Shown piece after piece: positions 38,473 through 44,642 of a stretch of DNA of 64,000 nt. The notes below the pieces were generated by a model that did not search any database, was not told where the DNA came from, and worked only from the letters and a program-made list of their open reading frames with translations. The number at the start of each line of letters is the position of its first letter. Within the stretch, counting starts at the first letter, position 1. The translations under genes and the position numbers were made by a program. The stretch is from Eledone cirrhosa (Eukaryota): assembly GCA_964016885.1 (NCBI GenBank), contig OZ024742.1, positions 205,592,001-205,656,000 of the forward strand. Direction: 5' to 3'.

Positions 38473-41239
<2,767 letters not shown>

Positions 41240-41448
41240 TTGTTATATTTGGGGAGGGTCATATTTGCGTAATATTGCCAGAATTAATAACAGAACACAC
41301 TCACTGTTTGGTTGGTTTTCGCTTCTCGCTGTCTTTTATATATATATATCTGCGATCTAACTTACTCGGTCCTCAATGTTGCCATTGACTGACCGGCGGT
41401 CAAAAATAATACAGATACAATATAGACAAACACATATATATATAGTTT

Positions 41449-41490
41449 ACATAAATCTTTCGTTGCACATCTGCAACATCGTCAGTGGTG
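41449..41490 (-). ncRNA. Hammerhead-like motif (mirror copy)
   Basis: Reverse complement of 44289-44330. Confidence 0.55.
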
Positions 41491-41742
41491 TTATATTCAT
41501 TGTTCCTCCTGTTGTGTTGTATGTCTACGCCATTTTTTTTTGTTCAGTCCGTCTATATATTTATTTATTTATTTGCTTGTTTGTTTATCTTATTTTATTT
41601 TGTCTTCTTTGCGCATGCGTTTGCGTGTGTGATGTGTGACTAGTGTGTATAGTGTTGTGTCTGCTGGGTGACTAGTGTGTGTTTATGTGCTTGTGTATGT
41701 ATTTATTTATCTTATTTTATTTAATTTAATTTACTTATTTAT

Positions 41743-42899
41743 TTATACTTCTCTTAGGTCAGTGTTGTTTGTTTGGGTGTTGTTGTTGTTCCACTCATTC
41801 TTTCTGTTTAGCTTTGGTCTTCTAATTTCTATTTCACTGGCCTCTCTGATTTGCCTATCTGCTGGGTCATTCCTATGTTTAGATATTATTCTAATTTCTA
41901 TGTTGTCTATGTTACCGTCATGATGTTGTCTAGCATGTTCGTATAGTACTGACCCGTTTTTTCGTCCTTTTAGTTCCCCCCAGTGTTGGTCTATCCTTTC
42001 ACCTATGCTACGAGCTGTCTCACCTATGTATGTTGTTGTCGTGTTTCTGCAAGTACCCTCTGTACATCTTATGCTATAGACTACGTTTCTAGTTTTACAG
42101 TTTATCCGGGGGTTCACCTTACATATGATACATTTCCTATTGGTACAGTGGGTTTTCTTAAAAGGGTAGGTTTTGCTGATCAGGGATTTTATGGTGGTTC
42201 TGGCTTTTCTACCACCTTTATTTTTAAGTGGGTCTTTCTCAGGGCCTTTCTACACTGGTTAGCTAATTTCCCTCCAGGGGTGGCGTCCACAAACATGACA
42301 CTCTGATATCTCTGGTTGTCGTACCATGATGTGGCCTTCCCTATCTTATGTCTAGCCCTATCTAAGCTATTCCATGATTTGCTCCTGTATAGTGGGCAAA
42401 TTCCTTTCATGTCCAGTTCTATGAGGGTCTTATACTTTTCCATGGCTCCTTCGTATACTCTGACTCTGTCTCTTTGGTTGTAGCCAGAGAACTGCATGCG
42501 GTTGATGAAGTGTTGGATGTGTCCTTCCATTTCTGTTGGGTCGCACATGCTGGACACATTCTTCATCACTCGTACCAAATCTGCGATCAGAATATTAAAC
42601 TTAGCACTACTGGACATTGCTGAGTTTTTGAGTATCAGGTATTTGGAGGCCATGGGTTTAGCATAGTGTGAGTGGAGAATTTGGGCTCTCTCGTCTATAG
42701 TGTTAATCCAGAGTTCTGTGTCTAATACAGGTAGTCTATTGTTAGGGTGTTTGGAAGGGAAGTCTATAGTTACAGTTATACTCTGGTGTATGGAATTAGC
42801 TATCTGCTGGATGCTTTCCATCGTGCTACGTTCTAAATCAAACTTGTTAGTGCTCTCTAGTGGGGGTGTTCTTATAACTATATTGATATCGTCAATATA
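41743..42899 (-). pseudogene. Mirror copy of the PLE ORF with a 1-nt frameshift near 42200
   Basis: ORFs 42189-42821 and 41743-42117 match 42957-44036; the frame extends upstream to YIDDINIVIR, which starts at 42899. Confidence 0.88.
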
Positions 42900-42956
42900 G
42901 TTATAAGAACACCCCCACTAGAGAGCACTAACAAGTTTGATTTAGAACGTAGCACG

Positions 42957-44036
42957 ATGGAAAGCATCCAGCAGATAGCTAATTCCATACACCAGAGTAT
43001 AACTGTAACTATAGACTTCCCTTCCAAACACCCTAACAATAGACTACCTGTATTAGACACAGAACTCTGGATTAACACTATAGACGAGAGAGCCCAAATT
43101 CTCCACTCACACTATGCTAAACCCATGGCCTCCAAATACCTGATACTCAAAAACTCAGCAATGTCCAGTAGTGCTAAGTTTAATATTCTGATCGCAGATT
43201 TGGTACGAGTGATGAAGAATGTGTCCAGCATGTGCGACCCAACAGAAATGGAAGGACACATCCAACACTTCATCAACCGCATGCAGTTCTCTGGCTACAA
43301 CCAAAGAGACAGAGTCAGAGTATACGAAGGAGCCATGGAAAAGTATAAGACCCTCATAGAACTGGACATGAAAGGAATTTGCCCACTATACAGGAGCAAA
43401 TCATGGAATAGCTTAGATAGGGCTAGACATAAGATAGGGAAGGCCACATCATGGTACGACAACCAGAGATATCAGAGTGTCATGTTTGTGGACGCCACCC
43501 CTGGAGGGAAATTAGCTAACCAGTGTAGAAAGGCCCTGAGAAAGACCCACTTAAAAATAAAGGTGGTAGAAAAGCCAGGAACCACCATAAAATCCCTGAT
43601 CAGCAAAACCTACCCTTTTAAGAAAACCCACTGTACCAATAGGAAATGTATCATATGTAAGGTGAACCCCCGGATAAACTGTAAAACTAGAAACGTAGTC
43701 TATAGCATAAGATGTACAGAGGGTACTTGCAGAAACACGACAACAACATACATAGGTGAGACAGCTCGTAGCATAGGTGAAAGGATAGACCAACACTGGG
43801 GGGAACTAAAAGGACGAAAAAACGGGTCAGTACTATACGAACATGCTAGACAACATCATGACGGTAACATAGACAACATAGAAATTAGAATAATATCTAA
43901 ACATAGGAATGACCCAGCAGATAGGCAAATCAGAGAGGCCAGTGAAATAGAAATTAGAAGACCAAAGCTAAACAGAAAGAATGAGTGGAACAACAACAAC
44001 ACCCAAACAAACAACACTGACCTAAGAGAAGTATAA
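42957..44036 (+). CDS. Penelope-like RT C-terminal/thumb region, Cys-rich linker and GIY-YIG endonuclease (N-truncated)
   Basis: LPVLD, YAKP, SGY, CTNRKCIIC, NVVYSIRC...YIGETARSIGERIDQH, H..HH, REASEI, P.LNRK.EW. Confidence 0.88.
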   Translation: MESIQQIANSIHQSITVTIDFPSKHPNNRLPVLDTELWINTIDERAQILHSHYAKPMASKYLILKNSAMSSSAKFNILIADLVRVMKNVSSMCDPTEMEGHIQHFINRMQFSGYNQRDRVRVYEGAMEKYKTLIELDMKGICPLYRSKSWNSLDRARHKIGKATSWYDNQRYQSVMFVDATPGGKLANQCRKALRKTHLKIKVVEKPGTTIKSLISKTYPFKKTHCTNRKCIICKVNPRINCKTRNVVYSIRCTEGTCRNTTTTYIGETARSIGERIDQHWGELKGRKNGSVLYEHARQHHDGNIDNIEIRIISKHRNDPADRQIREASEIEIRRPKLNRKNEWNNNNTQTNNTDLREV

Positions 44037-44288
44037 ATAAATAAGTAAATTAAATTAAATAAAATAAGATAAATAAATACATACACAAGCACATAAACAC
44101 ACACTAGTCACCCAGCAGACACAACACTATACACACTAGTCACACATCACACACGCAAACGCATGCGCAAAGAAGACAAAATAAAATAAGATAAACAAAC
44201 AAGCAAATAAATAAATAAATATATAGACGGACTGAACAAAAAAAAATGGCGTAGACATACAACACAACAGGAGGAACAATGAATATAA

Positions 44289-44330
44289 CACCACTGACGA
44301 TGTTGCAGATGTGCAACGAAAGATTTATGT
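44289..44330 (+). ncRNA. Hammerhead-like motif in the PLE pLTR
   Basis: CA CTGACGA T GTTGCA GATG TGCAAC GAAA GATT TA TG. Core and stem II are intact; stems I and III are weak. Confidence 0.55.
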
Positions 44331-44596
44331 AAACTATATATATATGTGTTTGTCTATATTGTATCTGTATTATTTTTGACCGCCGGTCAGTCAATGGCAA
44401 CATTGAGGACCGAGTAAGTTAGATCGCAGATATATATATATAAAAGACAGCGAGAAGCGAAAACCAACCAAACAGTGAGTGTGTTCTGTTATTAATTCTG
44501 GCAATATTACGCAAATATGACCCTCCCCAAATATAACAATATCTGTTTCGACACACGATTTCATATAAAAAACCTCGCAAAACTAATTCATCGCCG

Positions 44597-44642
<46 letters not shown>

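Follow-up and report, generated by a model that had tools for sequence, protein, structure and literature searches.

How does a Penelope-like element (PLE) come to lie head to head with itself inside a (TA)n array, and does the point at which its two arms meet reveal the mechanism? The question is raised by a palindrome in a window of 64,000 nt from Eledone cirrhosa (contig OZ024742.1), which an earlier note on this DNA had read as a cDNA that snapped back within the codons of its own reverse transcriptase (RT) catalytic motif and primed its own second strand. The palindrome, at 41237–44542, is real, yet a head-to-head arrangement of this sort is commonplace in the Penelope-type family to which it belongs, one that is young and very abundant. 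We propose that head-to-head insertions of this family in (TA)n arise from two cDNAs primed at both cut ends of the target, at ORF positions +26 and +84, and then joined, a reading to which we give a probability of roughly 0.55.

Structure of the Palindrome

Alignment of the two arms (41237–42886 against 42892–44542) spans 1650 nt with no mismatches and one indel, around a 5-nt loop at 42887–42891 that reads TATCG on the plus strand and CGATA on the minus strand. This bears out the description of a 3.3-kb palindrome with near-identical arms, a single 1-nt indel and a 5-nt loop. The indel falls at 43578, where the right arm has one base more; since 121 of 123 aligned arms carry this base, the difference is a loss from the left arm, where it causes a frameshift ahead of the endonuclease (EN) domain.

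Both arms are 5′-truncated PLE copies that end inside the ORF start of a following unit. The left arm (41237–42893, minus strand) runs from unit nt 2482 to next-unit ORF +26 and includes the loop in its native orientation, and the right arm (42892–44600, plus strand) runs from unit nt 2489 to next-unit ORF +84. They meet in a head-to-head junction at 42887–42893, which consists of a 5-nt spacer, native on the minus strand, and a 2-nt microhomology (TC/GA) at 42892–42893, and which thereby joins unit position 2482 of the left arm to 2489 of the right. The next unit's ORF start, +1 to +84, occupies 44517–44600 on the plus strand, and its portion at 44543–44600 is a one-sided tail: the right arm runs 55–58 nt beyond the end of the left arm, which lacks this sequence, and its final 3 nt (TAT) are common to the element and the (TA)n target. 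The span to 44597 proposed earlier is thus correct in that 44543–44597 is element sequence, but that stretch exists on the right side only and is not mirrored.

The right arm contains an open frame of 391 codons (42861–44036) that reaches through the GIY-YIG domain. From 42894 to 44036 on the plus strand, this frame encodes the end of the RT palm after the catalytic DD, the thumb, a CX4CX2C linker and a GIY-YIG domain with an internal Cys pair; its first Met, at 42957, gives a product of 359 aa. A pLTR lies downstream of the frame and none lies upstream. The inserted copy is dead as an RT while keeping an intact thumb-linker-GIY-YIG frame on its right arm, as had been claimed. A candidate hammerhead-type core (CUGANGA, a 17-nt spacer with a 6-bp stem, GAAA) is present in the 3′ UTR/pLTR at 44294–44321 on the plus strand and is mirrored at 41458–41485 on the minus strand; a scan against Rfam returned no hammerhead match at this core.

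The insertion interrupts a (TA)n target array. The left portion, counted over 40440–41236, is G-biased on the plus strand (62 G, 5 C), and the right portion, at 44601–44850, has the same polarity (18 G, 0 C). Because both flanks share one G bias, they are not mirror images of each other, unlike the flanks of a fold-back read. An assembly gap of 200 N (39874–40073) interrupts the left microsatellite at a distance of 1.2 kb from the element. Contigs from four public sequencing runs contain the native continuation past 42893 and no piece across the junction, and in the contigs of two public runs the fold point is followed by native sequence as in other copies.

An Abundant Penelope-Like Family

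A DNA search of the genome with a 509-nt piece of the arm, in which very common words were skipped, gave no match, and searches with protein and exact patterns were substituted. A 119-aa protein query returned 14,093 candidates, of which 150 were scored and were all 100% identical, and exact patterns matched 1588 times at the fold point and at least 4360 times in the EN region. Natural tandem arrays gave a unit of 4117 nt with a single ORF of 1210 aa, whose nearest protein is from Octopus vulgaris (69%). Partial tandems (pLTR), inverted 5′-truncated copies and one-sided tails are all present in the family. The identification of the window insertion as an inverted, 5′-truncated Penelope-like element is supported by the arm frame, the motif alignment and the predicted fold.

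Alignment with relatives reveals DKS and RYVDD motifs, a conserved linker (C-TNRK-C-II-C, or CX4CX2C) and a C-terminal endonuclease in which VVYSIRC-TEGTC-YIGET, with its internal Cys pair, and downstream His residues correspond to a GIY-YIG domain with a CCHH motif. An AlphaFold model of the C-terminal 730 aa of a full copy (pLDDT 79.7) had telomerases as its top five Foldseek matches, and by this predicted structure the RT is most similar to telomerase RT, as expected for an EN+ PLE. A Pfam scan of the window frames and of the full 1210-aa ORF (L062:3789-7418; E 1) gave no match, a trimmed ORF reached RVT_1 at E 1.4e-4, under the cut-off, and the Pfam GIY-YIG profile did not match the query itself while matching 3 of 11 aligned relatives. 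A sequence search of the PDB found weak RT matches alone (E 0.048 and 0.15). Even with an intact 1210-aa ORF, this clade is nearly invisible to Pfam domain scans. The full ORF also carries, at about aa 245–410 and ahead of the RT, a long Asn-rich segment that varies between copies.

Judged by these features, the family is best described as an EN+ Penelope-like family with Neptune/Nematis-type motifs. Two other placements were considered and rejected: the Hydra clade, which is marked by the absence of CCHH, a CxCX5C linker, a DKT motif and a size under 3 kb, by the Cys pair inside GIY-YIG, the CX4CX2C linker, DKS and the 4.1-kb unit, and Naiad/Chlamys by the position of the EN, which is C-terminal rather than N-terminal.

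The Catalytic Codons and the Fold Point

The minus strand at the center of the palindrome reads Y-I-D-D-I-N-I-V in frame, so the letters that had suggested a fold exactly at a catalytic YIDD are present. The native motif, however, is YVDD: among the 61 rows obtained for other copies, which stand for 60 loci, some of them counted twice, YVDD occurs in 57, Y-V in 60 and YIDD in none. Only the D-D codons onward, from 42893 downward, are native on the minus strand, and the Y-I codons come from the opposite, right arm, read as its reverse complement. YIDD is therefore a chimera of both arms, and the exactness of the fold at this motif is partly an artefact of the junction itself.

The native micro-hairpin that was thought to sit at the DD codons amounts to a 2-bp stem with a 5-nt loop. 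Of about 3600 positions in the ORF, 199 can form such a structure, and on either strand 21–25% of ORF 30-mers match or exceed the native site in folding stability, so the site is ordinary among ORF windows.

Could the YVDD codons still be a specific hotspot for snap-back of the native sequence, at which the RT is inactivated again and again? A pattern search found fold-backs within about 15 nt of the site at three loci, the window included, and a looser pattern added one more locus (L071), which is diverged and has a short inverted piece; two unselected 5′ ends also fall at unit 2484 and 2488. Five control windows contained 0, 2, 0, 1 and 0 fold-back loci, and with the window left out the two remaining loci compare with three in the five controls (P about 0.2, binomial by hand). 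These two, L149 and L150, use a different junction: they are long perfect palindromes centered on a native GATATC 2–3 nt away, which indicates that local self-complementarity is usable, and there may be a mild preference for GATATC. The 20-nt bin that holds the unselected 5′ ends accounts for 2 of the 37 5′ ends in unit 2000–3000, and native folding at the site is unremarkable. Mapped junctions are spread all along the element and the window site does not stand clearly above the controls, which goes against the expectation that fold-back points would concentrate here. We consider such a hotspot quite improbable, and the association of the junction with the catalytic motif is coincidental.

Junctions and Outer Ends Across the Family

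An unselected sample was taken from the first 100 EN-region matches on C1, taken as 77 regions. A head-to-head junction is present in 44 of the 77 and absent from 33, and head-to-head inversion is thus the norm of the family. Junction positions are scattered throughout the unit, and the offset between the two arms, measured from BLAST ends because refinement of junctions by the commonest letter stopped early in diverged copies, usually amounts to hundreds or thousands of nt. Microhomology was counted at 34 young junctions, defined by an identity of 96.5% or more in both arms, from which the window, L149 and L150 were excluded as selected loci. Inserted bases occur in 12 of these, and among the 22 insert-free junctions microhomology is at least 2 nt in 15 and exactly 2 nt in 11, against 14.7% in random joins. 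The 2-nt microhomology of the window is the commonest junction type in the family.

Near-symmetric junctions, with an offset of at most 40 nt, are overrepresented among loci chosen for long arms, where 5 of 20 qualify and 0.69 would be expected (p 0.00025), and number 3 of 45 in the unselected set against an expectation of 1.0 (p 0.076). The loop belongs to the +26 arm in four of them (the window, L152, L157 and L165) and to the tail arm in four others (L087, L137, L160 and L161). L148 is a nested double inversion, and L097 and L098, about 10 kb apart, have one junction in common and are hence not independent.

Both outer ends could be classified in 54 of 72 junction rows, 18 being left unclassed, and 53 of the 54 combine an end between +2 and +26 with an end between +69 and +85, L097 being the exception. 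At the 10 loci inspected, the outer ends lie on TA/AT letters common to the (TA)n flank. The tail arm is the longer arm in 16 of 31 cases and measures 52–64 nt in 4 of 31; this is about the stretch between the two sites, so that such tail arms cannot be copies of the other arm.

In 38 of 38 loci the sister arms resemble one another more than they resemble the median other locus, and private variants are common to both arms in 16 of the 38, which together imply that both arms usually come from one template; later gene conversion may mimic such identity. At L154 and L155 two linked subfamily alleles close to the junction distinguish the arms, a difference not expected from pure self-copying.

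Origin of the Head-to-Head Insertions

We hypothesize that the GIY-YIG domain cleaves both strands of the (TA)n target and that both target ends then prime cDNA, probably on one RNA, a single RNA being made probable by ends that are almost always unlike together with arms that are alike. Primers ending in TA would anneal at +26 and at +69/+84, and strand displacement could let both cDNAs copy one region. If both cDNAs tended to stop near one point on the template, an excess of near-symmetric junctions would result; their 3′ ends would be joined and filled in by microhomology-mediated repair, with the 2-nt microhomology of the window lying at the YVDD codons by chance. A Poseidon PLE acts on both target strands in vitro, cutting and then extending them, and initiates RT at two sites within the ORF that delimit the tail (PMC11167929), a two-site start that supports two cDNAs primed at +26 and +69/+84. 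That element belongs to another clade than the present family, and in the part of the paper covered its start site is equal between strands, from which strict pairing is not predicted (PMC11167929). Further points weigh against two primers: 33 of the 77 regions have no inverted arm, and the near-symmetric excess, with two GATATC palindromes beside the window junction, is what fold-back predicts.

The paired unequal ends favor coupled two-primer synthesis over simple snap-back. In a simple snap-back the loop-bearing left arm would be the first strand, yet it is without the 58-nt tail of the right arm, so the hairpin cDNA of the earlier note fails here in its simple form; it is likewise at odds with L152, L157 and L165, where the loop-bearing arm again has no tail. 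What survives of it is a version with staggered endonuclease resolution, in which a cDNA or an antisense template self-primes by snap-back at 1–6 nt of microhomology, is extended past +84 on both arms, and is cut at +26 and +69/+84 before integration. Staggered cutting of this kind would also yield one short and one tailed end with identical arms, and the near-symmetric excess, the perfect palindromes at native GATATC (L149, L150) and CTAG (L118), and near-identical arms with shared private variants would all follow. It has precedent as well, self-priming having been proposed in PMC3846280 and the tail put down to EN-mediated resolution in PMC8557442. We regard it as the main rival, though less probable than two-primer synthesis, since in most junctions the arms are hundreds to thousands of nt out of register, tail-only arms of 52–64 nt occur, linked subfamily alleles differ between the arms of L154 and L155, the native site has no special hairpin, and RT start sites bound the tail in vitro (PMC11167929).

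Two further explanations would place the palindrome after integration or outside the genome altogether. A single-arm insertion made palindromic later, by replication template switching or break repair, fits the short microhomology and the perfect arm identity, but would have copied the tail and flank or ended at random, whereas family-specific termini bound both arms in 53 of 54 rows and the flank is not mirrored; this we judge highly improbable. An assembly artefact from fold-back (chimeric) long reads might be suspected from the perfect arms, the low-complexity flanks, the 200-N gap 1.2 kb to the left and the failure of any contig in the four runs to span the junction. It is the least probable origin of all, given arms made unequal by a one-sided tail and ending at the two termini of the family, a (TA)n array of one polarity on both sides (62 G/5 C left, 18 G/0 C right), and an architecture that recurs at dozens of loci and also as an old, diverged relic at 5718–6093.

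Beyond two primed cDNAs joined in the target, a stricter form can be envisaged in which PLE integration is obligately coupled twin priming, carried out by one protein dimer on one RNA from two fixed internal sites with strand displacement. We advance this only tentatively, at slightly less than even odds. If true, a single reaction would yield the tail together with the inverted arm and the palindromic junction, and the thousands of near-identical copies of this family, with their 53-of-54 pairing, would prove it at the genomic level and lend themselves readily to reconstitution.

Relation to Known Systems

The literature on PLEs already describes inverted 5′-truncated copies and one-sided tails, as well as palindromic junctions and self-priming. 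The family resembles the Neptune/Nematis-type EN+ PLEs in its single ORF with an RT and C-terminal GIY-YIG, its CX2-5CxxC linker and the Cys pair in GIY-YIG, as well as in partial tandems, an inverted 5′-truncated copy, a one-sided tail, a candidate hammerhead-type core and (TA)n targeting (PMC8557442). It differs from them in a tail of 43 or 58 nt, corresponding to sites +69 and +84, in place of 30–40 nt, and in a 1210-aa ORF with a long Asn-rich N-terminal segment (PMC8557442). With Penelope of Adineta vaga it shares head-to-head inverted repeats, palindromic junctions, a tail on one inverted pLTR that spans the first ORF codons, and Asn-rich sequence in the ORF, which lies at a different position from the A. 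vaga inserts (PMC3846280). The A. vaga junctions, published in 2013, were explained by self-priming on an antisense template, whereas here junctions are mostly offset and the end pairing suggests two primers; the inverted arms here are also often kilobases long and the copies number in the thousands (PMC3846280). PAc, a Poseidon element of Anolis carolinensis, likewise has ends inside the ORF start at two tail-bounding sites and an AT-rich target, but starts at about +111–118 without homology, as opposed to +26 and +69/+84 with TA/AT common to the target, and the parts of that paper covered do not describe a pairing of the two sites within one insertion (PMC11167929).

Twin priming is a feature of L1. 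There, primers from two target ends produce a 5′ inversion and are joined through microhomology, with the second primer at variable internal sites and cDNAs that barely overlap. The present family is alike in its inversion and microhomology and in the two target-end primers proposed for it, but both of its sites are fixed, and the overlap between its arms reaches kilobases.

How PLE tandem and inverted structures form is named as an open question in PMC8557442. Penelope-like families with recent activity in O. vulgaris are catalogued in PMC13282606, where the passages covered do not describe an inverted structure. Our literature search, which covered the main text of freely readable papers, found no explicit coupled two-primer PLE model or end-pairing count. 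The locus itself is ordinary, and the part of interest is the end pairing at the level of the family. The pairing of +26 with +69/+84, the shared private variants and the microhomology of 1–3 nt are quantitative constraints for any model, and they separate two testable mechanisms. Many near-perfect inverted repeats of kilobase length may also be a source of dsRNA and instability in this genome.

Relics and Neighboring Sequences

At least half of the words sampled from 42500–43300 of the window are present in 10 public runs carrying seven organism labels, and no RNA run is listed among those that contain them. In 3 of four runs examined, contigs are identical over 79–104 nt, two of these runs at low depth, and such matches across organisms could reflect close relatives, contamination or horizontal spread.

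Fragments of non-LTR RT frames, split by (TA)n arrays, flank the insertion at 37518–38923 (minus strand), 44855–45440 (plus strand), 48156–50632 and 59916–62395; we take them to be LINE-type. The same stretches include a 2.5-kb direct repeat whose copies are 95% identical.

The window also holds older members of the PLE family. One relic has the same architecture in miniature, with an inverted tail piece at 5718–5782 on the minus strand (+66 to +1, 93% identical) and a pLTR arm at 5808–6093 on the plus strand that ends at +26 (77% identical). Other diverged relics are a pLTR at 23009–23197 on the minus strand, ending at +26, and a tail piece at 51148–51224 on the plus strand, ending near +74.
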